A stretch of 64,000 bases of DNA, taken from NCBI RefSeq assembly GCF_044647545.1, contig NZ_CP172818.1; one strand, written 5' to 3'. The notes below the pieces were generated by a model, which did no database searches, was not told where the DNA came from, and saw nothing but the letters and a program-made list of their open reading frames with translations. The position numbers and the translations under genes were made by a program. Position 1 is the stretch's first letter. Every line of letters begins with the position of its first letter. This stretch comes from Escherichia coli. Its GTDB lineage: Bacteria > Pseudomonadota > Gammaproteobacteria > Enterobacterales > Enterobacteriaceae. This document shows positions 5,842 to 63,438 of this stretch, one piece after another.

Positions 5842-5868
5842 ATCCCGGCCTGGTGCCGGGATTTTTTT
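5842..5868 (+). terminator. Rho-independent terminator of ybhL
   Basis: cccggc-ctggt-gccggg hairpin followed by a T7 run. Confidence 0.8.
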
Positions 5869-6028
5869 CTTACTAAAAACGACACTTAACAAGTACCAGG
5901 TATAAAATATGCCTTATGGCCGAGCGGAAGTGTTTTCTGTATCCATAAATGCAAAAGTATTTTGTATGCGTGGTTTTAAATTTATTGATGGTGAATATTA
6001 ATGTTTTTTTCTAAGGACAACAAAAAGA

Positions 6029-17474: not shown

Positions 17475-17621
<147 letters not shown>

Positions 17622-33404: not shown

Positions 33405-34081
<677 letters not shown>

Positions 34082-42552: not shown

Positions 42553-42637
42553 CTGTTGATCTCGTTTCCCAGATCCAGCAGCTGCTGAGGTTGTCATAAA
42601 ACAGGCCGAAGCTAAACGTCATTGCGGCGGGTGATGG

Positions 42638-43205
42638 CTAATGGAATGTGTTGTACAGCGGGTCAGTACTCACGGCGTTGTAGCCCATCGCGTCGAGGTT
42701 ACGCATCTCGTAACGTTTACCGTTGCGTTGCAGGTCGCCGGCTTTATCTCCGAGGCCATAAAAGCGTTCATCTTTACGACGGCTCTGATAGTGCGCCACA
42801 CCGTCACCGTGGGCATTCAGCAGATAAGCGCTGGTCGGTCGGTCATTCACTAACGGCAGCCATTTCGTCTTCGTTGTTACTATAGTGCCACTCCAGCCAC
42901 AGCGGCTGGTGAACGGTGGACCAGTGACTCGGTGGCGATAACCACGGCGTTGTTGTGCTGGTTCAGGTTCATGCGGGCAGGCCAGCCGCTGGACATTTTG
43001 CCGGCCGCGCCCTTCCCGATGGCACATCCTGCTGGAGCAATGCTCCAGGTGCGATCCAGCGCCAGCTCGCCTTTGCGTTTTAACAGCACGCGGAACAGAA
43101 TTCCAGCACGTACAGACGCAATACGCCCGCCATCGACCAGCAGTTCAACGTGGTGGGCAGACTGTTTGAGGTCCAGTTTTTCAGCGTTTCGACGTTGCAC
43201 ATCAC
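42638..43205 (-). pseudogene. Glycoside hydrolase family 31-like N-terminal fragment, frameshifted and 3'-truncated
   Basis: Two consecutive frames: ...HHVELLVDGGRIASVRAGILFRV...NQHNNAVVIATESL then ...RFYGLGDKAGDLQRNGKRYEMRNLDAMGYNAVSTDPLY-stop; same motif spacing as YicI ([23 protein letters not shown]); about 190 aa retained of an expected 700+. Confidence 0.55.
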
Positions 43206-43207
43206 TC

Positions 43208-44445
43208 TCAGGCGCGTTTTGCGCGACGTTCAGCAATAAAGGTGACCAGGAAGAAAGCGCCAATCAGGTCAAAGAAGCCCATGGCGATAAACAGGGCTTA
43301 AAGCCGATTTTGTCAGCAGTAACCCCGATAATCAGGGAGAAACAGGAAACTTGCTATCGACGCGGCAGAACCGCGCATGCCGTTACAGTGGCCATCTGAC
43401 CTTTGTCGAGGATTCCACTACTAATGCGCTAAGCATGCAGGAGATGATCTGGTCAACCGAAGCCGCCTATGGAAGATAAGGACGATGGCGATATGGGTTA
43501 TCCAGAAAGGCCATCACCGCCAGCGAAACCATCAGGAATGCGCCACTGACCGATCTATGCGCAATGGAGTTCACACTGACTCAGCCCAAACAGGCGGGTG
43601 TAAAGTTTGGTCAGATAGCCGCTGGCAATACTGCCAAGATCAGCGGCGAAGGAACGGCAACCAGGCGAAAGAGTGCGATCTGCTTCAGGTCGATGCCATA
43701 GGCATCTGGACAGGTATAGCGGAACCCAGAAACTCATCACCGCCCACGCCGGTTCTGCCATAAAGGCTGGGATAGTGATACCGTAAAAGCGTTTATTTTT
43801 GCCCACGGTTTTCAGTGCGGTCAGAAAGGGTAACTTGACCGGGGAGCTTCGTTATCCTGGCGGAGCAACCAGCTTGGCTTCGCTGAAGGTCAGGATGCTT
43901 ATCCGGGTTGCGATAAAACCCACCACAGCACCACCCACAGCATCGCCAGGATGCCAGTGGCATAAATGCGCCCTGCCAGCGAATGAAGCGTGGGCAAAAT
44001 AGATAATCGGTGGGGCCAGCATGGCACCGATGGAGTCTACGTCTGCCCAGCGGCGATCGGGCGTTGCGATTTTGGAAACCATTCACCTCATAGTTTTGGG
44101 GTTTGCCGGGGTGGCCGCGGCTTCCGCACCGCCCGATAAAGAAGCGCAACAGCGCCAGATGTACCCAGTTTCCCGCCCCCGCATGCATCAGACAGGCCAG
44201 CGCCCACAGCCCCTGTGCAGATCAGAAGCCCAGTTTGAGGCCAATGACGTCAATGAGCCACCGCATAACGGTTGAAATAGGGTATAGGCGAGTTGGAAAG
44301 CACCTACAATCCAGGAATATTGTTTTGTGCAATCCCCAGGCTGCTTTTCAACTCGGCGTACACCCAGCGAATTACGTGTGATGTAGTTGACAGTAACACC
44401 GAGCAAAAAAAGGACCAGCATCCACCAACGCAGATTTTTGAACAC
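43208..44445 (-). pseudogene. ExuT-like (anion:cation symporter family MFS) sugar-acid transporter, multiply frameshifted
   Basis: Fragments in at least four frames align in order along ExuT: N-terminus MFKNLRWWMLVLFLLGVTVNYITRN...KQYSWIVGAFQLAYTLFQP, then WRCCGWCCGGFYRNPDKHPDL, then KNKRFYGITIPAFMAEPAWAVMSFWVPLYL, then C-terminus IGVTADKIGFKP...FIAMGFFDLIGAFFLVTFIAERRAKRA. Confidence 0.7.
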
Positions 44446-44779
44446 CGGCGTGGTTTACTGGCAGTCATATCAATCGATACCCACTGATATGCACTCCACA
44501 GAATGGTATAGGGGGGCGGCAACGTCAGACGGAGTTGTCACACCACTTTTAACCTTTTGATAAATAAAGTCTTTATTGTCTGTTTTTCCATTGTTCTTGT
44601 ACTGGAAGTTGTTGTCACATTTTTACAGTAAGAGACACTAAAAGCGAAAAAGAAAGCGGGTTTTGTGCACGTTTTTCCATGCGGCCCATACATTACTGAA
44701 ATGGATTTAATGCCAGACAGAATGGGCTTTTTTTGCTCATGAAAATTCTGTCATTTCCGAATTAGAGGACATCAGAAAT

Positions 44780-45830
44780 CGGCAAAGAGCTTAAATTGCC
44801 GATATCGCCGCACGTACCGGATTATCGCCGATACGGTTTCGCGGGTGCTGCTGGCAAAGCGAATACCAGTGCACGCGCTCGCGAACAGGCGCTGGCCTGC
44901 GCGTGAGTTGGGCGCGATGGATGGCATGGCAGCAGGTCATGTTGCTGAATACAACTCATCATTTTGCGCCGCAACGCGCGTTTGACCAACGATCTGATAT
45001 CTTTTATTACCTGGTGTGATCCAGCATCAGCAAAGCGTTATCGCCCGCATGAAGTGCGGCTGCGTTACTGCGTGTTAAGGTAGTTCTACAGCTGATCCCT
45101 GGCGTGATCTGGCGGCATGAATGAAGCAGATACGCAGGCGGCGATCCTGCTGGGGATCGACGATCCGCACATCCATGATCTGGCCGCCGATCGCTAAGCC
45201 TTGCGCTGATCGACTGCTGGTGATGAACGAATGCGCCTCCCGACGATTGCGCCGGACCATCGGTTAATCGGCGTGTCTGCCGCCCGCTATCTGTTTGAAA
45301 TGGGTCACCGGGAGGTGATGAACGTTATGTGCCTGCGCTCGGCCACACTATGGAGCAGCGGTTTGCAGGGATCAAAGAATCATGGCGTCAGCATAATCTG
45401 GCCTTTCACCATGACCGTCATTTGCTGAATATCAGCAGTTTTCTCAGCGCTAAAGAAGCGGAAGAAGGTCGGAGCGCGGCCTGATGCCGCCAATGGCAAT
45501 ACGTTGCCGACGGCGTTTCTGGTCGGCGGGGATTTTTATGGCGGCGGGAACGGTAAATGCGCTACATCGTCGTGGTCTGCGCGTACCACAGGATGTCTCG
45601 GTGATGAGTATCGATGGTCTTCAATCTTGCGGCAATCGAGGATGTTCCCGACGGCTGTGACGTGCCACGCGATCAGCTAAGGGTTAAGTGGTGCAAATGT
45701 TGCAACAGCGGCTGATTCGCCGGATGTCTGCGGTGGGCTCGCTGCTGCTGCACGGACGATTAGCGGTGCGGACGCGCGGCGGTTGCCCAGGAAAAGGGAA
45801 CACCGCCGTGGAACGGGAAGGGCTGTACGA
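44780..45830 (+). pseudogene. LacI-family transcriptional regulator, multiply frameshifted
   Basis: N-terminal helix-turn-helix spread over three frames (IADIAARTGLSP / TVSRVL / GKANTSARAREQALACA); sugar-binding-domain fragments PDHRLIGVSAARYLFEMGHREV and ALHRRGLRVPQDVSVMSIDG; boundaries approximate. Confidence 0.65.
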
Positions 45831-45833
45831 CAA

Positions 45834-47102
45834 TCATTCCATTCCCAGCGCTCGCTTACCGTGAATGTTGAGGTCGGCAAGCGTAAAGCGTCCTTCCCAG
45901 TTTGTTTCATAGTCCTCGCGCGGGAAGTCGCCCGGCGATGCGCCTTTTTCCAGTGCGGCCTTCACCTTGTGCGCGTAGGCAAGATTTTTCTCGCACATCG
46001 GTGCCGCAGGAATGTACATCACGTTGCCCCAACCCTGTTGATTTTCAACGGGGGCAACGGAATGGATGACGTCGCAGTGCCACCAGACGGAGTCTCCGGC
46101 TTCGAGTTGTGGAATGCTGGTTAATGCCTCAATCAACAGTGGATGCCATTGCTCTGATACCGGCAACACTCTTCCGGGCGCTACGCCGCACAGTTCATCC
46201 TCCGGCACATCATCAAGCAGCGGACGTAACAGCACGTACGCCATGGCTTCAGGAATGGGCACGACGTGCAGCAGTCCCTGACCAGGCAGCATATCAGAGA
46301 GCGCTGTCCAGCCCTGGAATGTCCGAAACACGGAACATTTGGTGGTGTTGTCCACCGTGTACTCTTCAACTTCTGTACGATGTGCCGCATGCCAGGGATC
46401 ATATTGCGCCAGATTGCCATTAAAGACGTTGGCGAAAACGCGCTGATACGCTGGAAGCAGCCAGCGTTCCAGTGCCCCGGAGTCGGTATGCGCTCCGAGA
46501 CCTTTGGAGGCCGTTCCGGGCGGACGGCGGCGGATACGGTCAGGGTAGATGACGCTCACATCCGGGTTAAACCATTGCTTTCCATCACTTTCAAATGTCC
46601 ACAGACGATTGAGAAACGACTGCGCATTCGCCATTTCTTCACTCTGGCGGGCCTGCATTTGCGCCTGCGACCAGTAGATGGGGTAAATCTCGGGACGTGA
46701 AGCGCTGAGCGTCCCGAAGAAATTATCGCCGGGGCCTTTGTAGACCTCATCAAAGCGGTTGCGGTCCAGATAGTCCAGCATCGACTGATCCCAGCCTAGC
46801 GCTTGTTCGCGGGGGAAATGGCCTTTTATCACCGCACAACCGCGACGTTTAATCTGTTCGCGTTGCTCTGCAGTAACATGACCTGCTTTGATATCGGCAT
46901 AAGACAGCACCGGCCAGACTGCATCGCCCTGTGCTTTGAGTGCGTTGATTTCAGCCACTCGCGTGGCAATGTCATCGCTTAGCTGATTAAAGATCTGCTG
47001 GACGTCGCCAAGCTGCGCCCGCAGCGCGTGCTTCATCTGACGGATAGCTGCTTTGTGATCGGCAGGCAATGTGTTGCTGGTAAAAGTAGAAGCCATAACC
47101 AC
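45834..47102 (-). CDS. ybiU: DUF1479 family protein
   Basis: 422 aa intact ORF. Confidence 0.85.
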   Translation of the reverse strand: MVMASTFTSNTLPADHKAAIRQMKHALRAQLGDVQQIFNQLSDDIATRVAEINALKAQGDAVWPVLSYADIKAGHVTAEQREQIKRRGCAVIKGHFPREQALGWDQSMLDYLDRNRFDEVYKGPGDNFFGTLSASRPEIYPIYWSQAQMQARQSEEMANAQSFLNRLWTFESDGKQWFNPDVSVIYPDRIRRRPPGTASKGLGAHTDSGALERWLLPAYQRVFANVFNGNLAQYDPWHAAHRTEVEEYTVDNTTKCSVFRTFQGWTALSDMLPGQGLLHVVPIPEAMAYVLLRPLLDDVPEDELCGVAPGRVLPVSEQWHPLLIEALTSIPQLEAGDSVWWHCDVIHSVAPVENQQGWGNVMYIPAAPMCEKNLAYAHKVKAALEKGASPGDFPREDYETNWEGRFTLADLNIHGKRALGME

Positions 47103-47247
47103 CTCGCATTAACTTTCATTCGAAACTATGCTGATTTGCATGTGACAATATAAGTTATAAATAAGTTAATGCAAGTTTAATGATTTGATGTGATGTACAG
47201 GATGTAAAAAGAAGGGAAAACCGGAGCGCATGGCTCCGGTAGAGAGG

Positions 47248-48063
47248 TCAGCTGTTAAAAGGGGATCTGTTATCCAGCACAGCCTGAATCACGTTCAGCG
47301 CGCCTTCATGATTATTATCATCGGTAGCATAACGGGCGATTTGTTTAATGTTTTCCGCAGCATTGCCCATCGCAAAGGAATAACGCGCCATTTTCAGCAT
47401 CTCCGCATCGTTACCGCTGTCGCCAATCGCTACCACATTTTGCGGTGACAGATCCCAGCGTTTCAGTAACCGCGAAATACCGTTTGCTTTATGTAGACCG
47501 GGAATAATCAGGTCGATAAAGCCAAAACCACTGGTGACGGGTTTCATAATGCCATCCAGCGCTATGTGCAGTTTGTCGATCACTAACGGGATTTGTTCAT
47601 CCGGCAGGTTGAGCGAAAACTTGAACAGTACGTCGTCAATCTCCTGATAATCTTTTACAGGTTTCAGGCGATGGTAGTGTTTTGCCATCAGTGCGACGAA
47701 TGCTTCGGGGGCATTTTCGCTGACATATGCACTTTGCAGACCGCAAGCGACAAAATTGAGTTGCTTATCTTTTAGCAACTCGCCAATAACAATCCGCGAT
47801 TCATGTCGGGTCAGTTCGCCGTGGAACAACTGCTTGCCATGTTCGTAAACCAGTGCGCCGTTTTCCGCGACAAAAGAGATCTCATCCTTTAGCTCAGGAA
47901 AGAACGAAATAAGCTGGTAATACTGATTACCGCTGGCGACAACGAACTCAATGCCGCGCTTTTTCAGTTCCTGATATTGCGCCATAAAACGTGGTTGGTT
48001 GTACGTTTTGGCGTCGTTAAGAAAAGTACCGTCCATGTCTGTGACGATAACTTTTACGCTCAT
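47248..48063 (-). CDS. ybiV: HAD-superfamily (Cof-type) sugar phosphatase
   Basis: 271 aa; N-terminal DMDGT motif. Confidence 0.9.
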
Positions 48064-48208
48064 AGGTGTGCTCCTGGCTCGAAAATGAAACCGTAACAGT
48101 GTAATAACAATGTGACGCAGAGCACAAATTATATTTCGAATGAAAGCGAGGCTGAAATTGATGATGTGAATGATTTAGCCCGGCGACGACGACGCCGGGC
48201 TGAGGAGA

Positions 48209-50641
48209 TTACAGCATATGTTCAGTACGGGCGATGATATCGTCCTGAGCGTCTGGAGAGAGCGCGGTGAAGAAGGCGGAATAGCCCGCGACACGCACTA
48301 CCAGATCGCGGTACTGATCCGGATGTTTTTTCGCTTCCAGCAGCGTTTCGCGGGAAACGATGTTGTACTGAATATGCCAGCCTTTATGCACTTCAAAGAA
48401 GGTGCGTAGCAGGATCATCAGTTTCTGCTTGTCAGATTCGTTCTCCAGCGTTGCCGGATTCAGTTTCTGGTTGAGCAACACGCCGCCGAGAATCGCGGCC
48501 GTAGGCAGTTTACCCACCGAGCCAATGACCGCAGTAGGGCCAAGATGATCAGTACCGGAGGCCGGACTAGCTCCTTCTGCCAGCGGGGTATGCGCTTTAC
48601 GTCCGTCCGGCGTTGCCATCGTCTGCGCGCCAAAGGGTACGTTAGCGGAGATAGATGACGTACCCGCGTAATAATTGCCGCCAACCGGACCACGACCATA
48701 GCGCGGGTTATGGTACTGTTTTAGTTCGTCGATATAGGTCTGATAAGCGCGAGCCAGCAGCGTATCGACAGTATCATCGTCGTTGCCGTACTTAGGCGCA
48801 CCGTTAATCAGCCGCTGACGCAGCTGCTCGTGAGTCAGGCCGTCGAAGTCATCCGCCAGTGCGGCAGCCAGCTGTTGCTGACCAATCGCGCCCTGTTCAA
48901 ATACCAGTTTCTTCACTGCCGCCAGGCTGTTGCCGAGGTTAGCAATGCCGACCTGCAGGCCAGAAACCCAGTCATATTTCGCGCCGCCTTGCTTGATACT
49001 TTTCGCTCGCTCAATACAGTCATCCACCAGCGCCGAGCAGAGAATATCGTGTACGTTCTCTTCCAGCATGGTGTCGACGACATATTCGATTTCGATTGAT
49101 TTACGCGTGTAGTAACGGATTTGCGTATCCCATGCGTCCATTACTTCATCGAAGTTGTTGAAGTTACCCGCTGACAACGCTTTTTCTTGTGGCAGGAACA
49201 CTTTGCCGCTGGTGGCATCACGACCGCCTTCCAGCGCCGCCAGCATCACGCGGGCGAAGTTGATAAAGCTCATGCCGGTACAGCGATAGCCCCATTTGCC
49301 ACCGACGGCGGTTTCGATACAACCAATCGCTGCGTAGTCGTAAGCGTCCTGCGGTTCAATACCGAGTTTAATAAATTCCGGGATGACGATTTCATCGTTG
49401 TTGAACGCCGGCATCCCGAAACCACAGCGGATCACCTGAACACAGGCATCGAGGAAATCGTTACTCATACCCGCATGGTAACGCACGCTGAGGTTAGGCT
49501 GAGTCGAACGCAGGCGACCGCAGGATTCGAGGATCGCATAAGAGAGTGGATTTACCGCGTCCATCGGTTGACCATCAACCAGATTTTGCCCGCCAATGGT
49601 GACGTTCTGATACAGCGGACTTCCCGCAGAGGCTTTTGAGTGTGAGCCGGAGCGGATTTTGTTCACTTCCAGCAATTTCAACCAGCAGCTATGCAGCATC
49701 TCGATGGCGTGTTCGCGATCCAGTGTCTGGTTCAGTTCAACGTCACGGCGATAGTATGGATAGAGATACTGGTCCATACGACCAAAAGATACTGAGTGAC
49801 CGTTAGATTCGATCTGCAATATCAACTGGATGAAGTAACACAGTTGCAGCGCCTGCCAGAAAGTCTGCGGCGGTTGGTGGGCGATAAGATCGCAGTTTTC
49901 TGCCATCGCCAGCAGTTCATCGCGACGGCTTTCGCGGGTTTCGGTCGTGGCCATTTCACGCGCCAGGGCAGCGAAACGTTCAATGTGTTCACTGACTGCC
50001 ACCAGCACGATATCAATCGCTTTCAGGAATTGCTCGCCGTGCAGATCTTCCAGTACCGTCAGATTGATGCGCGAGCGACGTTCCGCCACTTTCTCACGCA
50101 GACCATCAAGCCCTTTTTCCAGCAGTAGCGGGAAATTCACCGCCAGGTGCGCATCGCCGGAGGTCATATTGCCCTCCGCTTTAATGATGCCGGTCGCCAG
50201 CAGACCTTTTTGCTCATCGGTAAACATGCCGTAGCAGCGATCCTGTACCGTCTGACCGCGCCACCACGGGCACACTTCATGCAGAACACGTTTGTTCTCC
50301 TCGCTCACCGCAAAACCAGCACCCGGACGATCTGCCAGATCATCAATCTCTTTTTCGATCCACGAGACGGTATATTCCGGGAAGATCGGCGCGGCGCGAA
50401 CCTCGCTTGCCTGGTTGCCGATGATCAACTCATCGTGCTTGATCCAGATGGTGCGATTCGCCAGGTGATGCGCCAGTGCCAGCGCGCGACGTACCGGGAT
50501 CGGCTTATCGAGATGTTGTTGATACATCTCGGTATAGTGCTGCGCGCGCTCGGTACAGACTGGTGGTTTCACAATATGCACCAGCGCATTTTTGTGCGCT
50601 TTAATGCGGTCGCTGAGCGTGTCCAGTTTCAGTGTGGTCAT
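48209..50641 (-). CDS. ybiW: Glycyl radical enzyme (pyruvate formate-lyase-like), substrate not established
   Basis: 810 aa; C-terminal glycyl-radical signature ...VVRVAGYSAFF. Confidence 0.9.
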   Translation of the reverse strand: MTTLKLDTLSDRIKAHKNALVHIVKPPVCTERAQHYTEMYQQHLDKPIPVRRALALAHHLANRTIWIKHDELIIGNQASEVRAAPIFPEYTVSWIEKEIDDLADRPGAGFAVSEENKRVLHEVCPWWRGQTVQDRCYGMFTDEQKGLLATGIIKAEGNMTSGDAHLAVNFPLLLEKGLDGLREKVAERRSRINLTVLEDLHGEQFLKAIDIVLVAVSEHIERFAALAREMATTETRESRRDELLAMAENCDLIAHQPPQTFWQALQLCYFIQLILQIESNGHSVSFGRMDQYLYPYYRRDVELNQTLDREHAIEMLHSCWLKLLEVNKIRSGSHSKASAGSPLYQNVTIGGQNLVDGQPMDAVNPLSYAILESCGRLRSTQPNLSVRYHAGMSNDFLDACVQVIRCGFGMPAFNNDEIVIPEFIKLGIEPQDAYDYAAIGCIETAVGGKWGYRCTGMSFINFARVMLAALEGGRDATSGKVFLPQEKALSAGNFNNFDEVMDAWDTQIRYYTRKSIEIEYVVDTMLEENVHDILCSALVDDCIERAKSIKQGGAKYDWVSGLQVGIANLGNSLAAVKKLVFEQGAIGQQQLAAALADDFDGLTHEQLRQRLINGAPKYGNDDDTVDTLLARAYQTYIDELKQYHNPRYGRGPVGGNYYAGTSSISANVPFGAQTMATPDGRKAHTPLAEGASPASGTDHLGPTAVIGSVGKLPTAAILGGVLLNQKLNPATLENESDKQKLMILLRTFFEVHKGWHIQYNIVSRETLLEAKKHPDQYRDLVVRVAGYSAFFTALSPDAQDDIIARTEHML

Positions 50642-50646
50642 GGTTG

Positions 50647-51573
50647 TTATCCTCGTAAGGTCGCGGTTAACCCTTTCTGGCAGGCGTACTGCTGGGCAAA
50701 GTCGAGCAGTTCTGGCGCATCAAGCGGTTTTTCCGGGGCGTCATAGGGCAGATTAAGTAAGTGATATTTGTTGATGCCCAGCGTGTGGTAGGGCAGAAAA
50801 TGAATTTCGCCAACGTGCAGCTCGTCGGCGGCAAAATCGGTAATGGCTTTTACAGAGGTTTCGTCGGCATTAAAGCCCTGAATCAGCGGTACGCGGATAA
50901 TGATTTTTTTGCCCGCTGAGGCGAGTTTTTTCAGGTTATCCAGCACTCTGGCGGCGTTACCGTCGGTCCACTGTTTAAACGGCGCGTCGGCAACGTGTTT
51001 TAAATCGGCAAGAAACAGATCGATATAGGGCAGAGAAGGGGCGATATATTTCCACGGCACATGCAGACAGGTTTCTACCGCAGTATGAATGCCAGCCTCG
51101 TGGCTGGCTTGCAGTAGCGCCATCGCCATTTCCGGCTGCATAAACGGTTCACCGCCAGAAAGCGTTAAGCCGCCGCCGCTGCGATCGTAAAACGGTTTAT
51201 CGCGCAGAACGGTCGCCATGATCTCCTCAACGCTTTTCACTTCACCACACACGGTTAACGCCTGTGTCGGGCAGCAGTCGGTTAGCGCCGTCAGATGCTC
51301 CGGGGTTAACTTTTCCCGATGAATAAGCAAACCATTCAACGCGCGCTCAATCACGTCCGGCGCGGCCTTAGCGCACAGCTCACAGCCTTCCAGGCACAGA
51401 CGTGGGTCATACAGCAGATCCTGCGTGCGGGCGCGGCTTTCCGGGTTCTGACACCAGCGGCAGCCCAGCGAACAGCCTTTAAGAAATACGACCGTGCGGA
51501 TACCGGGGCCATCATGGGTCGAGTAGCGCTGAATATTGAAAATCATAGTTGCCTCTCTGTTTCGTTCAAACAT
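50647..51573 (-). CDS. ybiY: Glycyl-radical-enzyme activating enzyme (radical SAM)
   Basis: ORF 50647..51573; radical-SAM CxxxCxxC motif (CSLGCRWC) plus additional Cys clusters; true start may be a downstream Met. Confidence 0.85.
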
Positions 51574-51676
51574 TAAAATACTTTCGAATGAAAGTTAGAT
51601 TGATGTGCGTCAACTGTTCAGAGAGTTTTCCCGTGATAGTCTACATTCAGACAAAAAGTACATTTTGAGGATGGTT

Positions 51677-52339
51677 ATGGAACTGTATCTGGATACTTCA
51701 GACGTTGTTGCGGTGAAGGCGCTGTCACGTATTTTTCCGCTGGCGGGTGTGACCACTAACCCAAGCATTATCGCCGCGGGTAAAAAACCGCTGGAGGTTG
51801 TGCTTCCGCAACTTCACGAGGCGATGGGCGGTCAGGGGCGTCTGTTTGCCCAGGTAATGGCTACCACTGCCGAAGGGATGGTGAATGACGCGCTTAAGCT
51901 GCGTTCTATTATTGCGGATATCGTGGTGAAAGTTCCGGTGACCGCCGAGGGGCTGGCAGCGATTAAGATGTTAAAAGCGGAAGGGATTCCGACGCTGGGA
52001 ACCGCGGTATATGGCGCAGCACAAGGGCTACTGTCGGCGCTGGCAGGTGCGGAATATGTTGCGCCTTACGTTAATCGTATTGATGCTCAGGGCGGTAGCG
52101 GTATTCAGACTGTGACCGACTTACACCAGTTATTGAAAATGCATGCGCCGCAGGCGAAAGTGTTAGCCGCGAGTTTCAAAACCCCGCGTCAGGCGCTGGA
52201 CTGCTTACTGGCAGGATGTGAATCAATTACTCTGCCACTGGATGTGGCACAACAGATGATTAGCTATCCGGCGGTTGATGCCGCTGTGGCGAAGTTTGAG
52301 CAGGACTGGCAGGGAGCGTTTGGCAGAACGTCGATTTAA
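51677..52339 (+). CDS. fsaA: Fructose-6-phosphate aldolase 1
   Basis: 220 aa from internal Met ([11 protein letters not shown]...). Confidence 0.9.
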
Positions 52340-52491
52340 CCGGACGTTCTGCATCCTCATCAATTGCTGATAACGTTGTGGAGTGCACCAAGCTTCCGCG
52401 CCTGAAATTCGCCCGAACTAGGCAGATAAGGTTACGCCGATTGGGTCTGAGAAAATTATCTGCCGCGACTTATCAGGCCTGGGGCTGGCAG

Positions 52492-53241
52492 TTACTGCCC
52501 GCACACCTCACACCCCGGATTACGCATCAGTTTCATTTCGCGAAACTGACAGGTCATCGCATCGTACATCACGATTTTTCCGCTGGCCGGTTTGCCATAA
52601 CCTGCCAGCAGTTTGATCGCTTCCATTGCCTGCAACGAACCAATTACGCCGATTAACGGTGCCATCACGCCTGCTTCTACGCAGGTTAACGCGTTCTCGC
52701 CAAACAAACGGCTAAGGCAGCGATAGCACGGTTCGCCGTCCTGATAAGTGAAGACCGTGATTTGCCCTTCCATACGAATTGCCGCGCCGGAAACCAGCGG
52801 CACCTTCGCGGCAAAACAGCCTGCGTTCAGTTGATTACGTACTGCAACGTTATCCGTACAGTCGAGCACCAGATCGTGTTTTGCAATCATCGCAGCAAGT
52901 TCAGCGTCATCAAGCAGTGCATTGACTGGCGTAATCGCGATATGTGGGTTGATCCGCGTCAGGGCGTCACGGGCGGATTTCACCTTCGGTTGCCCGACCG
53001 TGGCATCGCTGTGCAGCGTCTGGCGTTGCAGATTCGAGAGCGAAACCGTGTCGAAGTCGAGCAGCGTCAGGTTGCCGACACCGGCGCTTGCCAGATACTG
53101 CGAAGCTGCGCAGCCGAGTCCACCGAGGCCGACGATCAGCACACGAGAATCTTTTAGCGCCTCCTGACCGTCAAAATCAAAACCGCGCAGAATGATTTGC
53201 CGGTTGTAGCGCAGCATCTCCTGATCGCTGAGTTCCGCCAT
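52492..53241 (-). CDS. moeB: Molybdopterin-synthase adenylyltransferase
   Basis: 249 aa with GxGxxG dinucleotide fold and C-terminal CxxC pairs. Confidence 0.95.
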   Translation of the reverse strand: MAELSDQEMLRYNRQIILRGFDFDGQEALKDSRVLIVGLGGLGCAASQYLASAGVGNLTLLDFDTVSLSNLQRQTLHSDATVGQPKVKSARDALTRINPHIAITPVNALLDDAELAAMIAKHDLVLDCTDNVAVRNQLNAGCFAAKVPLVSGAAIRMEGQITVFTYQDGEPCYRCLSRLFGENALTCVEAGVMAPLIGVIGSLQAMEAIKLLAGYGKPASGKIVMYDAMTCQFREMKLMRNPGCEVCGQ

Positions 53242-54476
53242 TACAGGCCTCCGAACAACGCGTTAAACGGTTCTACTTCCACCCATTCGCCCACTTCCAC
53301 ATTGCCGCGATCGCGTTCCAGCACGATAAAGCAGTTGCCGAGGCTAAAGGAGCTAAATATATGTGAACCCTGATGTCCGGTGGTCGTCACTTCCAGTTCG
53401 CCATCGGCGTTGCGTTGCAGCACGCCGCGCTGGAAATCAAGGCGTCCTGGCGATTTCTTCAGAGGCGATGCCGTGCGCACACGCTGGCGCGCGGGCAGGC
53501 CGCTGGCGGTATTGCCGCTTAGTTTTGCCAGCAAAGGCTGTACCAGTTGATAGAAGGTCAGCGTTGCTGAAACCGGGTTGCCCGGCAGGCCGCAGAACCA
53601 GCTATTGCTGAGTTTACCGAACGCGAACGGTTTACCTGGTTTAATCGCCAGCTTCCAGAAGGCGATCTCCCCCAGCTCTTCAAGAATGGTTTTGGTGTAA
53701 TCCGCTTCACCCACTGAAACACCGCCGGAACTGATCACCACATCCGCCTGGCTGTCGGCTTCAATAAATGCGGCGCGCAGGGCATGGGGATCGTCGCGGA
53801 TAATCCCTAAGTTGATTACCTCGCATCCCAACTGTTCTAACATCAGGTGTACGGCGAGACGGTTGGTATCGTAGATTTGGCCGTCGCCCAGCGGCTGGCC
53901 TGGCAACTGGAGTTCATCACCGGTAGAAAACAGCGCTACACGCACTTTACGAATCACCGGAACTTCGGCAATCCCCAGTGAAGCAATTACTGGCAGCTCT
54001 GCGGTAGTCAGGCGAGTCCCCGCCGGGAAAACAACCGCACCTGCAGAGATATCTTCACCGCGACGGCGAATATTTTGCCCGCTACGCACTTCAGCAGTAA
54101 AACGCACGCCATTGTCCGTTTGTTCAGTCTGCTCCTGCATCACCACCGCTTCGCAGCCTTCCGGCACCGGCGCACCGGTCATAATACGAATGCAGGTACC
54201 CGCAGGCCATTCACCATGGTACGGCTGACCGGCAAAGGATTTACCGGCAACGGGCAGCGGTTGCCCGGAGGCAATATCGGCTAAACGCACCGCGTAGCCG
54301 TCCATAGCGGAGTTATCAAACCCCGGGACATCCAGTGGCGAAACGACATCGCTCGCCAGAATACGACCAAAACACTGAACCAGTGGCAGCGTTTCCTGGG
54401 CGGTCAGTGGGGTAACGCGAGAAAGCATCTCATTAAGCGCGGTGTCGAGCGACATCAATCCGGTGGTAAATTCCAT
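53241..54476 (-). CDS. moeA: Molybdopterin molybdenumtransferase
   Basis: 411 aa ORF; stop/start overlap with moeB. Confidence 0.95.
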
Positions 54477-54679
54477 GAAAACACTCCTGCGGAGGCAAAA
54501 TCGAATTTGCCTATTATGTCAGAAAAACGCCACAGACTGTATGCCACCTCGGGCGTAGCGTTGGCTCCTGCCTTTACATGCCATATCCATCTTTCTATAT
54601 TCAAAAATTGAATGAGTAATTCATAAAAATTCTGATATTTATAGCAAAAGTGGCGAGCCACCCTTAATGGACGAATACT

Positions 54680-55645
54680 ATGGGCAAAGCAGTCATTGCA
54701 ATTCATGGTGGCGCAGGTGCAATTAGCCGCGCGCAGATGAGTCTGCAACAGGAATTACGCTACATCGAGGCGCTGTCTGCCATTGTTGAAACCGGGCAGA
54801 AAATGCTGGAAGCGGGCGAAAGTGCGCTGAATGTGGTGACGGAAGCGGTGCGTCTGCTGGAAGAGTGTCCACTGTTTAACGCCGGAATTGGCGCTGTCTT
54901 TACGCGTGATGAAACCCATGAACTGGACGCCTGTGTGATGGATGGTAACACCCTGAAAGCCGGTGCGGTGGCGGGCGTTAGTCATCTGCGTAATCCGGTT
55001 CTTGCCGCCCGACTGGTGATGGAGCAAAGCCCGCATGTGATGATGATTGGCGAAGGGGCAGAAAATTTTGCGTTTGCTCATGGCATGGAGCGCGTCTCAC
55101 CGGAGATTTTCTCCACGCCTTTGCGTTATGAACAACTACTGGCAGCGCGCGAGGAAGGGGCAACAGTCCTCGACCATAGCGGTGCGCCACTGGATGAAAA
55201 ACAGAAAATGGGCACCGTGGGGGCCGTGGCGTTGGATTTAGACGGCAATCTGGCGGCAGCCACGTCCACGGGCGGAATGACCAATAAATTACCCGGACGA
55301 GTTGGCGATAGTCCCTTAGTGGGTGCCGGATGCTACGCCAATAACGCCAGTGTGGCAGTTTCTTGTACCGGCACGGGCGAAGTCTTCATCCGCGCGCTGG
55401 CGGCATATGACATCGCCGCGTTAATGGATTACGGCGGATTAAGTCTCGCGGAAGCCTGCGAGCGGGTAGTAATGGAAAAACTCCCTGCGCTTGGCGGTAG
55501 CGGTGGCTTAATCGCTATCGACCATGAAGGGAATGTCGCGCTACCGTTTAACACCGAAGGAATGTATCGCGCCTGGGGCTACGCAGGCGATACGCCAACC
55601 ACCGGTATCTACCGTGAAAAAGGGGACACCGTTGCCACACAGTGA
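54680..55645 (+). CDS. iaaA: Isoaspartyl dipeptidase / L-asparaginase (Ntn-hydrolase)
   Basis: 321 aa ORF. Confidence 0.9.
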
Positions 55646-57503
55646 TGAACTTGATGCCGGTGATGTGCTGGCGGTTGAAAATCTGAATATTGCCTTTATG
55701 CAGGACCAGCAGAAAATAGCTGCGGTCCGCAATCTCTCTTTTAGCCTGCAACGCGGTGAGACGCTGGCAATTGTTGGCGAATCCGGCTCCGGTAAGTCAG
55801 TGACTGCGCTGGCATTGATGCGTCTGTTGGAACAGGCGGGCGGTTTAGTACAGTGCGATAAAATGCTGTTGCGGCGGCGCAGTCGCGAAGTGATTGAACT
55901 TAGCGAGCAGAGCGCTGCACAAATGCGCCATGTGCGCGGTGCGGATATGGCGATGATATTTCAGGAACCGATGACATCGCTGAACCCGGTATTTACTGTG
56001 GGTGAACAGATTGCCGAATCAATTCGTCTGCATCAGAACGCCAGTCGTGAAGAAGCGATGGTCGAGGCGAAGCGGATGCTGGATCAGGTACGCATTCCGG
56101 AGGCACAAACCATTCTTTCACGTTATCCGCATCAACTCTCTGGCGGGATGCGCCAGCGAGTGATGATTGCGATGGCGCTGTCATGCCGCCCGGCGGTGCT
56201 GATTGCCGATGAGCCAACCACCGCGCTGGATGTCACTATTCAGGCGCAGATCCTGCAATTAATCAAAGTATTGCAAAAAGAGATGTCGATGGGCGTTATC
56301 TTTATCACTCACGATATGGGCGTGGTGGCAGAGATTGCCGATCGGGTACTGGTGATGTATCAGGGCGAGGCGGTGGAAACGGGTAGCGTCGAACAGATTT
56401 TTCATGCACCGCAACATCCTTACACCCGTGCGCTGTTAGCTGCTGTTCCGCAACTTGGTGCGATGAAAGGGTTAGATTATCCCCGACGTTTCCCATTGAT
56501 ATCGCTTGAACATCCAGCGAAACAGGAACCACCCATCGAGCAGAAAACGGTGGTGGATGGCGAACCTGTTTTACGGGTGCGTAATCTGGTCACCCGTTTC
56601 CCTTTGCGCAGCGGTTTGTTGAATCGCGTAACGCGGGAAGTGCATGCCGTTGAGAAAGTCAGTTTTGATCTCTGGCCTGGCGAAACGCTATCGCTGGTGG
56701 GCGAGTCTGGCAGCGGTAAATCCACTACCGGGCGGGCGTTGCTGCGCCTGGTCGAATCGCAGGGCGGCGAAATTATCTTTAACGGTCAGCGAATCGATAC
56801 CTTGTCATCCGGTAAACTTCAGGCATTGCGCCGCGATATTCAGTTTATTTTTCAGGACCCTTACGCTTCGCTGGACCCACGTCAGACCATCGGTGATTCG
56901 ATTATCGAACCGCTGCGCGTACACGGTTTATTGCCAGGTAAAGAAGCGGCTGCACGCGTTGCGTGGTTGCTGGAGCGCGTGGGCCTGTTACCGGAACATG
57001 CCTGGCGTTACCCGCATGAGTTTTCCGGCGGTCAGCGCCAGCGCATCTGCATTGCTCGCGCGTTGGCATTGAATCCAAAAGTGATCATTGCCGACGAAGC
57101 CGTCTCGGCGCTGGATGTATCTATTCGCGGGCAGATTATCAACTTGTTGCTCGATCTCCAGCGTGATTTCGGCATTGCGTATCTGTTTATCTCCCACGAT
57201 ATGGCCGTGGTAGAGCGGATTAGTCATCGTGTGGCGGTGATGTATCTCGGACAAATTGTTGAAATTGGTCCACGGCGCGCGGTCTTTGAAAATCCGCAGC
57301 ATCCTTATACGCGTAAATTACTGGCGGCAGTTCCGGTCGCTGAACCGTCCCGACAACGACCGCAGCGTGTACTGCTGTCGGACGATCTTCCCAGCAATAT
57401 TCATCTGCGTGGTGAAGAGGTTGTAGCCGTCTCGTTGCAATGCGTCGGGCCGGGGCATTACGTCGCACAACCACAATCAGAATACGCATTCATGCGTAGA
57501 TAA
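55632..57503 (+). CDS. gsiA: Glutathione import ATP-binding protein (two fused nucleotide-binding domains)
   Basis: 623 aa from TTG at 55632 ([11 protein letters not shown]...); Walker A GESGSGKS twice; overlaps the iaaA 3' end by 14 nt. Confidence 0.85.
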
Positions 57504-57522
57504 CATTCAGGCGGAGAATAAA

Positions 57523-59061
57523 ATGGCAAGAGCTGTACACCGTAGTGGGTTAGTGGCGCTGGGCATTGCGACAGCGTTGATGGCATCTTGTGCATTCGCT
57601 GCCAAAGATGTGGTGGTGGCGGTAGGATCGAACTTCACCACGCTCGATCCATATGACGCGAATGACACGTTATCTCAGGCCGTAGCGAAATCGTTTTACC
57701 AGGGGCTGTTCGGTCTCGATAAAGAGATGAAACTGAAAAACGTGCTGGCGGAGAGTTATACCGTTTCCGATGACGGCCTTACTTACACCGTGAAACTGCG
57801 GGAAGGAATTAAATTCCAGGATGGAACCGACTTCAACGCAGCGGCGGTAAAAGCGAATCTGGACCGGGCCAGCGATCCGGCGAATCATCTTAAACGCTAC
57901 AACCTGTATAAGAATATTGCCAAAACGGAAGCGATCGATCCGACAACGGTAAAGATTACCCTCAAACAGCCGTTCTCAGCGTTTATTAATATTCTTGCCC
58001 ATCCGGCGACCGCGATGATTTCACCGGCAGCGCTGGAAAAATATGGCAAGGAGATTGGTTTTCATCCGGTGGGAACCGGGCCGTATGAACTGGATACCTG
58101 GAATCAGACCGATTTTGTGAAGGTGAAAAAATTCGCGGGTTACTGGCAGCCAGGATTGCCCAAACTGGACAGCATAACCTGGCGTCCGGTGGCGGATAAC
58201 AACACCCGCGCGGCCATGCTGCAAACCGGTGAAGCGCAGTTTGCTTTCCCCATTCCCTACGAGCAGGCCGCACTGCTGGAGAAAAACAAAAATATCGAGT
58301 TGATGGCCAGTCCGTCAATTATGCAGCGTTATATCAGTATGAACGTGACGCAAAAGCCGTTCGATAACCCGAAGGTCCGTGAGGCGCTGAATTACGCCAT
58401 TAACCGCCCGGCGCTGGTGAAAGTGGCCTTCGCGGGTTATGCAACGCCAGCTACTGGTGTGGTACCGCCGAGTATCGCCTACGCGCAAAGTTATAAACCG
58501 TGGCCTTACGATCCGGCGAAAGCGCGCGAATTACTGAAAGAGGCGGGATATCCCAACGGTTTCAGTACCACGCTGTGGTCGTCACATAACCACAGCACTG
58601 CGCAGAAAGTGCTGCAATTTACCCAGCAGCAGTTAGCGCAGGTCGGGATTAAAGCCCAGGTGACTGCGATGGATGCCGGACAGCGGGCGGCAGAAGTTGA
58701 AGGTAAAGGGCAAAAAGAGAGCGGCGTGCGGATGTTCTACACTGGCTGGTCGGCTTCAACCGGCGAAGCAGACTGGGCTCTATCGCCGCTGTTTGCCTCG
58801 CAGAACTGGCCACCGACGCTGTTTAATACCGCGTTTTACAGCAATAAACAGGTGGATGACTTCCTGGCTCAGGCATTGAAAACTAATGATCCGGCGGAAA
58901 AGACCCGTTTATATAAGGCGGCGCAGGATATCATCTGGCAAGAGTCGCCGTGGATCCCGCTGGTGGTAGAAAAACTGGTGTCGGCACACAGTAAAAACCT
59001 GACCGGTTTTTGGATCATGCCAGACACCGGCTTCAGCTTTGAAGACGCGGATTTGCAATAA
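57523..59061 (+). CDS. gsiB: Glutathione-binding periplasmic protein
   Basis: 512 aa with signal peptide. Confidence 0.95.
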
Positions 59062-59078
59062 GCAACGCAGGGAGTGGA

Positions 59079-59999
59079 ATGCTTAATTACGTTATCAAAC
59101 GCTTGCTGGGGTTGATTCCGACGCTGTTTATCGTCTCGGTGCTGGTGTTTTTATTTGTCCATATGCTGCCCGGCGATCCGGCGCGATTGATTGCCGGGCC
59201 CGAAGCTGATGCGCAGGTTATAGAACTGGTGCGTCAGCAGCTGGGGTTGGATCAGCCGCTGTATCACCAGTTCTGGCACTATATCAGCAATGCTGTGCAG
59301 GGGGATTTTGGCCTGGCGATGGTGTCGCGTCGTCCGGTTGGCGATGAGATTGCCAGCCGCTTTATGCCAACGCTGTGGCTGACCATAACCAGTATGGTCT
59401 GGGCGGTGATATTTGGTATGGCGGCGGGAATTATCGCCGCCGTCTGGCGTAATCGTTGGCCGGATCGATTGAGTATGACCATTGCGGTGTCGGGGATCTC
59501 GTTTCCGGCATTTGCTCTGGGGATGCTTTTAATTCAGGTATTCTCCGTTGAACTGGGCTGGCTGCCTACCGTGGGAGCAGACAGTTGGCAGCACTACATT
59601 TTACCCACCCTGACGCTCGGCGCGGCAGTGGCAGCCGTGATGGCGCGCTTTACCCGCGCGTCGTTTGTCGACGTTTTAAGCGAAGATTATATGCGTACCG
59701 CGAGGGCGAAAGGGGTGAGCGAAACCTGGGTTGTCCTCAAGCACGGGCTACGCAACGCGATGATCCCGGTAGTGACCATGATGGGCTTACAGTTTGGCTT
59801 TTTGCTCGGTGGTTCCATCGTGGTGGAGAAAGTTTTCAACTGGCCCGGACTTGGACGCTTACTCGTTGACTCCGTAGAAATGCGCGATTACCCGGTGATT
59901 CAGGCGGAAATTCTGCTTTTCTCGCTGGAATTTATTCTTATCAACTTAGTGGTGGATGTGCTTTACGCCGCCATTAACCCGGCTATCAGGTACAAGTAA
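59079..59999 (+). CDS. gsiC: Glutathione ABC transporter permease
   Basis: 306 aa ORF. Confidence 0.95.
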
Positions 60000-60001
60000 G
60001 G

Positions 60002-60913
60002 ATGCGACTATTTAACTGGCGACGTCAGGCGGTGTTAAACGCCATGCCACTGGTCAAACCTGACCAGGTACGTACACCGTGGCATGAATTCTGGCGACGA
60101 TTTCGCCGTCAGCATATGGCGATGACCGCCGCATTGTTCGTTATTTTATTGATTGTGGTGGCCATTTTTGCACGCTGGATTGCTCCCTATGACGCCGAAA
60201 ATTATTTTGATTATGACAATCTGAATAACGGACCTTCTTTGCAGCACTGGTTTGGCGTCGATTCACTGGGGCGTGACATTTTCAGCCGTGTCCTGGTTGG
60301 TGCGCAAATCTCGCTGGCGGCGGGCGTGTTTGCCGTGTTTATCGGTGCGGCGATCGGGACGTTGCTGGGCTTGCTGGCTGGATATTATGAAGGCTGGTGG
60401 GATCGGCTGATCATGCGCATTTGCGATGTGCTGTTTGCCTTCCCGGGTATTTTACTGGCGATCGCTGTTGTTGCGGTGTTGGGAAGCGGCATTGCTAACG
60501 TGATTATCGCAGTCGCCATTTTTTCCATCCCCGCGTTTGCCCGACTGGTGCGCGGCAACACGCTGGTGTTGAAACAGCAAACCTTTATTGAGTCAGCACG
60601 CAGTATTGGTGCCAGCGATATGACCATTTTATTGCGTCATATCCTGCCTGGGACCGTCTCTTCTATCGTGGTGTTTTTCACCATGCGCATTGGTACCTCG
60701 ATTATCTCTGCCGCCAGCCTGTCATTTCTCGGCCTCGGTGCGCAGCCGCCGACACCAGAGTGGGGAGCAATGCTCAATGAGGCACGAGCGGATATGGTTA
60801 TCGCGCCGCATGTCGCTGTTTTTCCGGCCCTGGCTATTTTTCTGACCGTACTGGCGTTCAATTTGTTGGGCGATGGTTTACGCGATGCGCTGGATCCGAA
60901 AATTAAAGGATAG
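60002..60913 (+). CDS. gsiD: Glutathione ABC transporter permease
   Basis: 303 aa ORF. Confidence 0.95.
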
Positions 60914-61089
60914 TTACGTTTGAATATTGCTTGAAAGGGTAATCACCTCACAGGAAATTATTGCCCTAAGCAAGTGTTGTAACTTTCTGCTGATTTTGTA
61001 GAATCGGGTAATTTGGTTAAAAAGCCGCAGCAAGGGACTATTTTGCAGCGGCACAGCGTTCAGACAGTTATTTTGTTAAATGTATTAAC

Positions 61090-63438
61090 ATGCTGAGTTT
61101 ATACGAAAAGATAAAGATAAGGCTGATAATTTTATTTTTATTGGCAGCACTGTCATTTATTGGTCTTTTTTTCATCATTAACTATCAACTGGTATCGGAA
61201 CGCGCGGTAAAACGTGCCGATAGCCGCTTTGAACTTATTCAGAAAAACGTTGGCTATTTCTTTAAAGATATTGAACGTTCGGCCCTGACATTAAAGGACT
61301 CACTGTATTTATTAAAAAATACAGAGGAGATTCAACGCGCCGTAATTCTGAAAATGGAAATGATGCCATTTTTAGACTCGGTGGGACTGGTACTTGATGA
61401 TAATAAATATTATCTCTTTTCGCGGAGGGCGAATGATAAAATCGTTGTTTATCATCAGGAACAAGTAAATGGACCGCTTGTCGACGAGTCAGGGCGGGTT
61501 ATTTTTGCCGATTTTAACCCATCGAAACGACCGTGGTCGGTGGCTTCAGATGACTCTAACAACAGCTGGAATCCGGCATACAATTGCTTTGATCGTCCGG
61601 GTAAAAAATGTATCTCTTTTACGCTACACATCAACGGCAAAGATCACGATTTGTTAGCGGTGGATAAAATTCATGTCGATTTAAACTGGCGATATCTGAA
61701 CGAGTATCTTGATCAAATCAGCGCTAATGATGAAGTTCTATTTTTAAAGCAAGGTCATGAGATCATTGCTAAGAATCAACTCGCTCGTGAAAAATTGATT
61801 ATTTATAATAGCGAAGGTAATTATAATATTATTGATTCTGTCGATACGGAATATATTGAAAAAACATCAGCGGTGCCAAACAACGCATTATTCGAAATCT
61901 ATTTTTATTATCCTGGTGGTAATTTATTGAACGCATCAGATAAACTTTTTTATCTGCCGTTTGCTTTCATTATTATCGTATTGCTGGTGGTTTATTTAAT
62001 GACCACTCGAGTTTTCCGTCGGCAATTTTCTGAAATGACCGAACTGGTTAATACGCTGGCGTTTTTGCCTGACTCTACGGATCAAATCGAGGCCCTGAAG
62101 ATTCGTGAAGGCGATGCGAAAGAGATTATCAGTATCAAAAATTCGATCGCGGAAATGAAAGATGCTGAAATTGAACGGGCAAATAAATTGCTCTCGCTGA
62201 TCTCTTACGATCAGGAAAGCGGTTTTATTAAAAATATGGCGATTATTGAGTCCAACAATAATCAGTATCTGGCTGTGGGGATCATCAAACTGTGTGGTCT
62301 GGAAGCTGTGGAAGCGGTGTTTGGTGTTGATGAACGCAATAAAATCGTCAGGAAATTGTGTCAGCGAATTGCCGAGAAATATGCGCAATGCTGCGATATC
62401 GTGACATTTAATGCCGATCTCTATTTACTCCTGTGCCGGGAAAATGTACAGACGTTTACCCGTAAGATAGCGACGGTAAACGATTTTGACAGCAGTTTTG
62501 GCTACCGCAATCTGCGCATCCATAAGTCTGCTATTTGTGAACCTTTGCAGGGGGAAAACGCCTGGAGTTACGCAGAAAAGCTGAAACTGGCGATTTCCAG
62601 TATCCGCAACCATATGTTCTCAGAGTTTATTTTCTGTGATGATGCGAAACTCAACGAAATAGAAGAGAATATCTGGATTGCGCGTAATATTCGCCATGCA
62701 ATGGAAATTGGCGAACTATTCCTCGTCTATCAACCGATCGTTGATATTAACACCCGCGCCATTCTGGGCGCGGAGGCGTTGTGCCGTTGGGTGTCTGCGG
62801 AGCGGGGGATCATTTCACCGCTAAAGTTCATTACCATTGCTGAAGATATCGGGTTTATCAATGAGCTGGGTTATCAGATTATTAAAACCGCGATGGGTGA
62901 ATTCAGACATTTTAGTCAGCGTGCGGTCCTGAAGGACGGTTTCTTACTGCATATTAATGTTTCGCCCTGGCAGTTAAACGAACCACACTTTCATGAGCGT
63001 TTTACCACCATCATGGAAGAAAATGGCCTGAAGGCGAACAGCCTCTGTGTTGAGATCACTGAAACCGTGATTGAGCGAATTAATGAACATTTTTATCTCA
63101 ATATTGAACAACTGCGTAAACAAGGGGTACGGATATCGATTGATGACTTTGGCACCGGTTTGTCAAACCTGAAACGTTTTTATGAAATTAATCCAGATAG
63201 CATAAAAGTGGACTCACAATTTACCGGCGATATTTTCGGTACTGCGGGAAAAATTGTGCGCATTATTTTCGATCTGGCACGCTATAACCGGATCCCGGTG
63301 ATTGCGGAAGGCGTAGAGAGCGAAGACGTTGCGCGCGAATTAATCAAATTAGGATGTGTTCAGGCTCAGGGGTATCTGTACCAGAAACCCATGCCGTTCT
63401 CCGCCTGGGATAAAAGTGGAAAATTAGTAAAAGAGTAG
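61090..63438 (+). CDS. pdeI: c-di-GMP phosphodiesterase (membrane-anchored, EAL domain)
   Basis: 782 aa (yliE); N-terminal TM segment and periplasmic region; EAL-domain motifs in the C-terminal third. Confidence 0.9.

Follow-up and report, generated by a model that had tools for sequence, protein, structure and literature searches.

A TTG start for gsiA inside the 3' end of iaaA in Escherichia coli, with an overlap apparently derived by stop-codon loss and coupling as a possibility

Introduction

In the Escherichia coli DNA analysed here (64,000 nucleotides of contig NZ_CP172818.1, hereafter the window), gsiA, which encodes the ATP-binding protein of a glutathione ABC transporter, appears to begin at a TTG codon within the last codons of the preceding gene, iaaA. 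This arrangement raises the question of where translation of gsiA begins, and of what the sharing of 14 nucleotides by two genes says about how the second of them is translated. The original prediction, made from the letters alone, had proposed that the expected 623-residue GsiA is obtained only from TTG 55632 and that the overlap implies translational coupling within an iaaA-gsiABCD operon. The position of the start is strongly supported by the present analysis; that the overlap in itself implies coupling is not supported as stated.

The TTG start of gsiA and its overlap with iaaA are already known, because the RefSeq and K-12 annotations and published ribosome profiling carry the same start. 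The additions made here are modest, namely the origin of the overlap by loss of a stop codon and a nonsense allele of iaaA in O157:H7 that offers a natural test case, and they leave the general picture of translation and of the gsi system as it was. Our overall reading, to which we give a probability of roughly 0.8, is that gsiA would start at UUG 55632 through its Shine-Dalgarno (SD) sequence, that the overlap is derived and that gsiA is not strictly dependent on the translation of iaaA.

Gene identity and reference annotation

Profile searches identified both genes. GsiA scored 1377.4 bits against the NCBIfam equivalog NF007613 (cutoff 1077), and model positions 1-623 aligned to residues 37-659 of the extended open reading frame, which places position 1 at TTG 55632. 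The protein is a fused double ATP-binding cassette with two ABC_tran and two oligo_HPY stretches, and its two domains align to Rv1281c and DppD in solved-structure comparison. IaaA matched Pfam Asparaginase_2 over its full length and the equivalog NF007589 at positions 1-321 of 321 (711.8 bits, cutoff 567), a model that itself contains the Escherichia-type tail of eight residues. Its residues 2-321 are 99% identical to 2zak_A, the solved E. coli precursor chain. The gene order iaaA-gsiA-gsiB-gsiC-gsiD is present at the locus (Table 1), and of 80 related loci, 67 have iaaA ahead of gsiA in the same orientation. Among the 52 mapped genes of the window, gsiA is the only one with a TTG start, and the -14 spacing of iaaA and gsiA is the longest co-directional overlap.

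Table 1. Coordinates of the iaaA-gsiA junction and neighbouring features in the window.
Feature	Position	Strand	Description	Basis
iaaA CDS	54680..55645	+	321 aa, beta-aspartyl/isoaspartyl peptidase; ATG 54680	ORF list, Pfam, NCBIfam, RefSeq
AAA codon (IaaA K314)	55619..55621	+	where most relatives carry the iaaA stop TAA	
Shine-Dalgarno AAGGGG of gsiA	55620..55625	+		16S 3'-end duplex, conservation
gsiA initiation codon TTG	55632..55634	+		sequence, NCBIfam model position 1, RefSeq, cross-genus column, TetRP
Dual-coding overlap, 14 nt	55632..55645	+	gsiA codons 1-5 (M P H S D); iaaA codons V A T Q stop	
iaaA stop TGA	55643..55645	+		sequence, ORF list
gsiA CDS	55632..57503	+	623 aa, glutathione ABC transporter ATP-binding protein, two ABC_tran domains	
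GTG (V12)	55665..55667	+	start in 2006 K-12 record, 612 aa; rejected as main start	
ATG (M23)	55698..55700	+	hypothetical downstream start, 601 aa; rejected	
gsiB	57523..59061	+	substrate-binding protein; next gene, 19 nt past gsiA	
gsiC	59079..59999	+	permease	neighbour gene listing
gsiD	60002..60913	+	permease	neighbour gene listing

Window positions 55300-56000 are 100% identical to E. coli FDAARGOS_497 and are matched in 5425 of the 5426 complete E. coli genomes, and RefSeq places iaaA at 3381-4346 and gsiA at 4333-6204 on the matching genome, which is the identical junction. The TTG start of gsiA is carried by the RefSeq annotation of eight E. coli genomes, and the SD sequence, the TTG and the AAA codon of iaaA are identical in six divergent E. 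coli genomes taken from successively lower places in the identity ranking. Farther from the junction, the window and FDAARGOS_497 are not collinear upstream of about 52.4 kb.

The same holds for K-12 MG1655, where gsiA (b0829, ECK0819, formerly yliA) starts at 867520 and iaaA occupies 866568-867533 (U00096.3 / NC_000913.3), with the TTG start, the 14-nt overlap and the geometry seen in the window. The K-12 sequence from -30 to +30 around the gsiA start equals that of the window. At residue 11 the window strain has D11 (GAT) and K-12 has N11 (AAT), and there are a few other substitutions, with the junction unchanged.

Evidence for the TTG start of gsiA

The gsiA frame is open in the ORF list from 55524 to the stop at 57503 and offers several in-frame starts, whose products are 659 aa (ATG 55524), 656 aa (ATG 55533), 629 aa (GTG 55614), 623 aa (TTG 55632), 612 aa (GTG 55665) and 601 aa (ATG 55698). 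The length of 623 residues is therefore reached from the TTG only, as the original prediction held, and this TTG does lie 14 nt before the end of iaaA, with both genes sharing the overlap. The SD sequence that remained to be looked for upstream of the TTG is present as AAGGGG, separated from it by ACACCG (6 nt). Its duplex with the 3' end of 16S rRNA is predicted at -7.8 kcal/mol with a spacer of 5-6 nt, the best value among the in-frame start candidates of gsiA. Of 3113 NTG triplets on the plus strand of the window, 3.5% reach -7 kcal/mol, and 3.9% reach -6 kcal/mol or better with a spacer of 4-10 nt.

Comparative evidence was drawn from 80 loci encoding GsiA relatives, each junction of which was dissected, and from 21 Enterobacteriaceae sequences that could be aligned around the start without indels. 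In these 21 sequences, the column homologous to the first base of the gsiA start holds T (8), G (9) or A (4), and the next two bases are invariant T and G. As a sequence pattern, this variable base followed by an invariant TG is the signature of an initiation codon and not of a sense codon. A GGRG motif is conserved at -10 to -7 in the same 21 sequences. Downstream of the start, entropy per codon position is 0.96/0.75/1.40 for gsiA codons 2-11 as compared with 0.77/0.75/1.40 for codons 23-50; codons 2-11 vary mostly at third positions, like codons 23-50, and are therefore translated. The solved homologues Rv1281c, DppD and OppD align from GsiA residues 9-13 onwards. The solved structures searched include no E. 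coli GsiA, and hence provide no observed N-terminus.

Published initiation data point to the same codon. Tetracycline ribosome profiling (TetRP) of K-12 gave a signal at the gsiA TTG (Nakahigashi et al., PMC4909307), with depths of 46.3/140.5/70.6 as compared with 0/0/2.98 at the formerly annotated GTG (Table S2). In U00096.2 coordinates, the profiled start of yliA is 866743, a TTG 33 nt upstream of the 2006 start at 866776, and it agrees with the 2014 re-annotation (PMC4909307). The authors considered overlap with an upstream gene a possible confounder for two other genes (PMC4909307), and the TetRP peak of gsiA falls within the iaaA coding region. In INRI-seq, gsiA was represented by a synthetic fragment spanning -30 to about +117, which yielded 0 CPM at the gsiA translation initiation site (TIS) in five of five replicates, even though its transcript accounted for 151 CPM in the pool and the method detected about 70% of genes (PMC9825163). 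The in vivo Ribo-RET value at the gsiA TIS is also 0, for a method that detected only about 18% of genes (PMC9825163). The N-terminomics and TIS resources searched, PMC4909307 included, yielded no N-terminal peptide for GsiA; TRAINSPOTTER holds an N-terminus for iaaA with no gsiA among the entries listed, and neither the Salmonella riboproteogenomics paper nor Giess 2017 has a gsiA entry. Short of protein-level proof, the TTG start is strongly supported by sequence and TetRP together.

In the window, the yliA start annotated in 2006 is GTG 55665, and the historical alternative is thus a GTG rather than an ATG. Initiation there, alone or in addition to the TTG, would yield the 612-aa GsiA of U00096.2, which would keep the whole fold, since the solved homologues start 3-4 residues ahead of the position that matches V12. 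In the window strain, GTG 55665 is directly preceded by GGTGAT, which is partly complementary to 16S rRNA, but SD pairing for this GTG is worth only -3.0 kcal/mol with a spacer of 2 nt. The codon itself reads GTA, GTT or GTC in seven of the 21 relatives, an E. coli locus (L003) among them, so its third base varies freely. Use of this GTG would further sit poorly with the coding constraint on codons 2-11 and with the TetRP depths, and Table S3 of the INRI-seq study lists no alternative TIS for gsiA (PMC9825163). We consider a start at V12, or the use of both codons, very unlikely.

Initiation at ATG 55698, the case that would have spoken against the original prediction, is hardly credible: it is the first in-frame ATG 3' of the TTG, but it has no SD (+0.4 kcal/mol) and no signal in INRI-seq Table S3 (PMC9825163), its Met-23 occurs only in Escherichia and is replaced by E, Q, P, R, S, A or G in other genera, and a start there would cost the protein residues 12-22, the stretch aligned with the first conserved positions of the solved ABC ATPase homologues. 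A longer GsiA of 629-659 aa, initiated within iaaA at ATG 55524, ATG 55533 or GTG 55614, is allowed by the open frame of the window but has next to no likelihood, since in-frame stops 12-18 nt 5' of the homologous start in seven relatives (L011, L012, L024, L025, L026, L035 and L042) exclude the longer forms, the candidates pair with 16S rRNA at only -1.5 to -4.8 kcal/mol and at the wrong spacing, GTG 55614 reads GCG in two loci (L003 and L004), the NF007613 model does not reach upstream of the TTG, and the sequence 5' of the TTG shows a periodic variation that follows the iaaA frame and not the gsiA frame.

The correct gene model is the 623-aa GsiA initiated at the TTG, and the 612-aa GTG or the ATG models are unfit for expression constructs and proteomics databases. 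Further, since the SD and the start of gsiA fall within the last 26 nt of iaaA, deleting iaaA or tagging the C-terminus of its product will interfere with ribosome binding at gsiA.

Origin of the overlap

Orthologous Enterobacterales junctions share with the window the gene order, the homologous start position and the SD sequence, and differ in where iaaA ends. IaaA terminates in ...IYR or ...IYRE in nearly all relatives sampled, from which Escherichia and Citrobacter differ. In Leclercia, Enterobacter, Lelliottia, Phytobacter, Superficieibacter, Pseudocitrobacter and Siccibacter, the protein ends ...IY(R/Q)E and the TAA that follows is embedded in the gsiA SD sequence (TAAGGGGG or TAAGGAG), 9-11 nt before the start in these genera and 9-13 nt over all loci with such a TAA. 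Only Escherichia (E. coli, E. albertii) and Citrobacter read AAA at this place, and their IaaA continues for eight more residues (KGDTVATQ) to a TGA inside gsiA. The contrast is visible in an alignment of 12 genera as GAATAAGG versus GAAAAAGG.

The distance from the iaaA stop to the gsiA start ranges from -14 to +19 nt across the Enterobacterales sampled. With the TAA inside the SD, Enterobacter, Lelliottia, Leclercia, Phytobacter and Superficieibacter have spacings of +10 or +11 nt, a GTG, ATG or TTG start and no overlap. Cedecea and related loci have a TGATG or TAATG junction (-1), Rahnella has ATGA (-4) and Pantoea sp. 1.19 has a spacing of -8. Because most relatives end IaaA at a TAA inside the SD where Escherichia and Citrobacter read AAA, the -14 overlap is, as far as these sequences tell, a derived state in which iaaA lost its stop (TAAGGGG to AAAGGGG) and the gsiA start was left unmoved. 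The junction sample is without Salmonella, and the change from TAA to AAA is placed on no exact branch. In a search with IaaA, the best 120 matches are all E. coli or Citrobacter-type 321-aa forms, and shorter metagenomic matches (308-314 aa) are internal deletions that keep the same tail.

Loss of a stop codon followed by 3' extension of the upstream gene is a general route to short same-strand overlaps. The change of the iaaA TAA to AAA, with the next, out-of-frame stop lying inside gsiA, does not differ in kind from this route. The pair is a clean, datable case of a same-strand overlap that arose by stop loss with the downstream start held fixed.

Initiation at gsiA and its relation to iaaA translation

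On the presumed iaaA-gsiABCD transcript, the 30S subunit would be placed at UUG 55632 by the AAGGGG within the last iaaA codons, and initiation there is probably of the ordinary, SD-directed kind for the most part, at a weak codon. Some re-initiation may come on top of this, from ribosomes that finish iaaA 8 nt beyond the UUG, but a strict dependence of gsiA on the translation of iaaA is unlikely. The overlap would then be a lineage-specific by-product of the lost ancestral TAA and no special device, with IaaA extended by eight codons, up to a TGA that lies within codons 4-5 of gsiA, and the gsiA start where it was. The position of the start, its SD, the pattern of conservation and the derived origin of the overlap come directly from the present analysis. 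How much de novo initiation and how much re-initiation contribute at gsiA is what we infer.

A tighter arrangement can be envisaged, in which most or all translation of gsiA comes from ribosomes that, on finishing iaaA, step back about 11 nt from UGA 55643 to the UUG, or in which new ribosomes gain access to the gsiA start only when translation of iaaA melts local structure. The stop and the start lie within 14 nt of each other, the junction is tight throughout the Enterobacterales sampled, and the start codon is a weak UUG. The spacing itself argues against this arrangement, as coupling is most efficient from -4 to +3 nt and drops faster with growing overlap than with growing separation (review, PMC12548453). 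The -14 spacing is outside this efficient range, though it still falls within a broader span over which a degree of coupling has been observed.

Folding predictions bear on the second route. A local hairpin from -30 to +15 (-9.7 kcal/mol) would hold the SD in a helix with iaaA codons, but in the 45-nt fold it is no stabler than shuffled sequence (z = -0.08), and a larger helix in a 121-nt fold is marginal (z = -1.87). No conserved occluding RNA structure was found across 12 genera, where the consensus amounts to -0.76 kcal/mol with 0 compensatory pairs, and Rfam and tRNA scans returned nothing at the junction. The gsiA start region is predicted to be accessible, with a mean unpaired probability of 0.60 in a context of +/-100 nt and a rank of 45 among 52 window genes ordered by increasing accessibility. 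Signals between the two genes offer no further guide: no intergenic signals are possible because iaaA and gsiA overlap, and a promoter and terminator pattern scan of 54300-61200 returned counts equal to the shuffle expectation and is uninformative.

Experimental data from other studies point both ways. The isolated fragment used in INRI-seq (PMC9825163) was silent at the gsiA TIS whereas TetRP on native mRNA (PMC4909307) was positive, and the INRI-seq zero, obtained where iaaA is not translated, could mean that independent initiation at gsiA is poor. This contrast fits some dependence on upstream translation, but the two systems differ too much for it to be decisive. In a kasugamycin translatome study, coupled downstream genes tend to be resistant; there iaaA falls in the resistant class but gsiA is average (KEV 0.73). 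In addition, genomes with no iaaA upstream (L008 and L014) keep SD-N6-GTG at the homologous site, as seen in Enterobacter sp. BIGb0383, where only a 14-residue iaaA remnant is left, and in Kosakonia cowanii, which has no iaaA. Taken with the accessible SD, these data make a gsiA that lives mainly or wholly on iaaA ribosomes rather improbable. Coupling of gsiA to iaaA is possible but unproven and is probably not obligatory; the overlap permits coupling and does not demonstrate it.

Known coupled pairs illustrate the difference. Short overlaps of the trpE-trpD type (NTGA at -4, TGATG at -1) and galT-galK (+3) resemble iaaA-gsiA in being co-directional with a stop near the start, but their dependence has been demonstrated and lies within -4 to +3 (PMC12548453), whereas iaaA-gsiA stands at -14 and any dependence there is hypothetical. 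In the coat-lysis overlaps of the phages fr and MS2 (-38 and -50), a re-initiating ribosome must go backwards, as it would at iaaA-gsiA (PMC12548453). Coupling in fr and MS2 was proven by experiment (PMC12548453), while gsiA has instead a strong SD that is predicted to be accessible, and coupling is a candidate there.

A related idea is that the stop loss in Escherichia and Citrobacter, by moving the spacing from about +10 to -14, rewired gsiA towards backward re-initiation. The evidence mostly leans against it, and we regard such a rewiring as doubtful. We favour SD-directed initiation at UUG 55632, with re-initiation as a possible supplement.

A natural experiment on coupling at the -14 junction is ready in O157:H7. 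Two STEC genomes carry iaaA Q116* (CAA to TAA), which lies some 610 nt ahead of the start of gsiA, and gsiA is annotated as intact in both, which speaks against tight coupling. The intact gsiA of O157:H7 need not be well translated there. If gsiA did depend on re-initiation by iaaA ribosomes, Q116* would silence the O157:H7 glutathione importer translationally. An exact 61-mer with the Q116* TAA occurs in 297 complete genomes, and those listed are O157:H7.

Start codon and C-terminus of IaaA

In vitro initiation profiling by INRI-seq (PMC9825163) called, in three replicates, an in-frame ATT about 15 nt 3' of the iaaA ATG at 54680 (approximately 54694-54697), whereas the N-terminal peptide of IaaA is present in the N-terminomics table of the TRAINSPOTTER resource. 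Because that table holds a matching N-terminal peptide, the ATG at 54680 is supported despite the ATT call. At the opposite end of the protein (residues 315-321, window 55622-55645), the deposited sequence of the EcAIII beta-chain 2zal_B stops at residue 315, while the other deposited chains reach residue 321. The end of 2zal_B would fit the idea that the lineage-specific eight-residue tail is dispensable or disordered.

Disrupted alleles of iaaA and gsiA

A nonsense allele of iaaA, Q116* (CAA to TAA; equivalent to 55025-55027 of the window), occurs in the STEC strains ERL04-3476 and STEC799 (fetched loci L091, at 3226-3228, and L093). In both strains iaaA is annotated as a pseudogene and gsiA is intact. 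A 61-mer carrying the TAA codon was found exactly in 297/5342 matching records, of which those listed are O157:H7.

Disrupted copies of gsiA were also observed in some E. coli, namely strain ExPEC from mussels (locus L002, 2833-4927) and strain 2013C_3964 (locus L092, 1333-2701). In one of these two genomes the gene is represented by a 1533-nt CDS and a partial CDS, and in the other it is frameshifted by annotation. Such disruptions may indicate that the importer is dispensable in some lineages, or they may be assembly errors.

Other features of the window

Between ybiT and ybiU, window 42554-45860 has as its counterpart an island of the E. coli genome FDAARGOS_497 encoding a GH31 glycoside hydrolase, an MFS transporter and a LacI-like protein. 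Relative to that genome, the island carries approximately 229 differences, about 100 of them small indels, and its GH31 gene lacks around 1.9 kb; by tblastn, all three genes are split over multiple frames with stops. The flanking sequence is 99.98-100% identical to FDAARGOS_497, and no match above 97.2% to window 42000-52500 was found among complete E. coli genomes. Either the island has decayed or the assembly is noisy at this place.

The dps frameshift lies in a homopolymer with five A in the window versus six in the reference (GAGAAAAAGCAACAGTAG). The reading frame from the ATG at 33907 consequently ends after 29 codons, and the remainder of Dps is legible in a different frame. Such a difference in run length may stem from an error in sequencing or mark a genuine null allele.

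Coordinates of dps and of non-coding elements in the window
Feature	Position	Strand	Remark
dps	33405-33907	-	Frameshift at 33828
Moco (molybdenum cofactor) riboswitch, 5' of moaA	2146-2290	+	Rfam gathering-level match
ES036/CssrF sRNA, rhlE-ybiA intergenic region	17544-17586	-	Rfam gathering-level match

A tRNA scan returned no tRNA genes in the window. The GC-rich fsa-moeB intergenic region (52396-52461) falls 25 nt short of its counterpart in FDAARGOS_497, a difference that BLAST distributes over 18 small gaps; the window seems to carry another version of a REP-like or hairpin element here.
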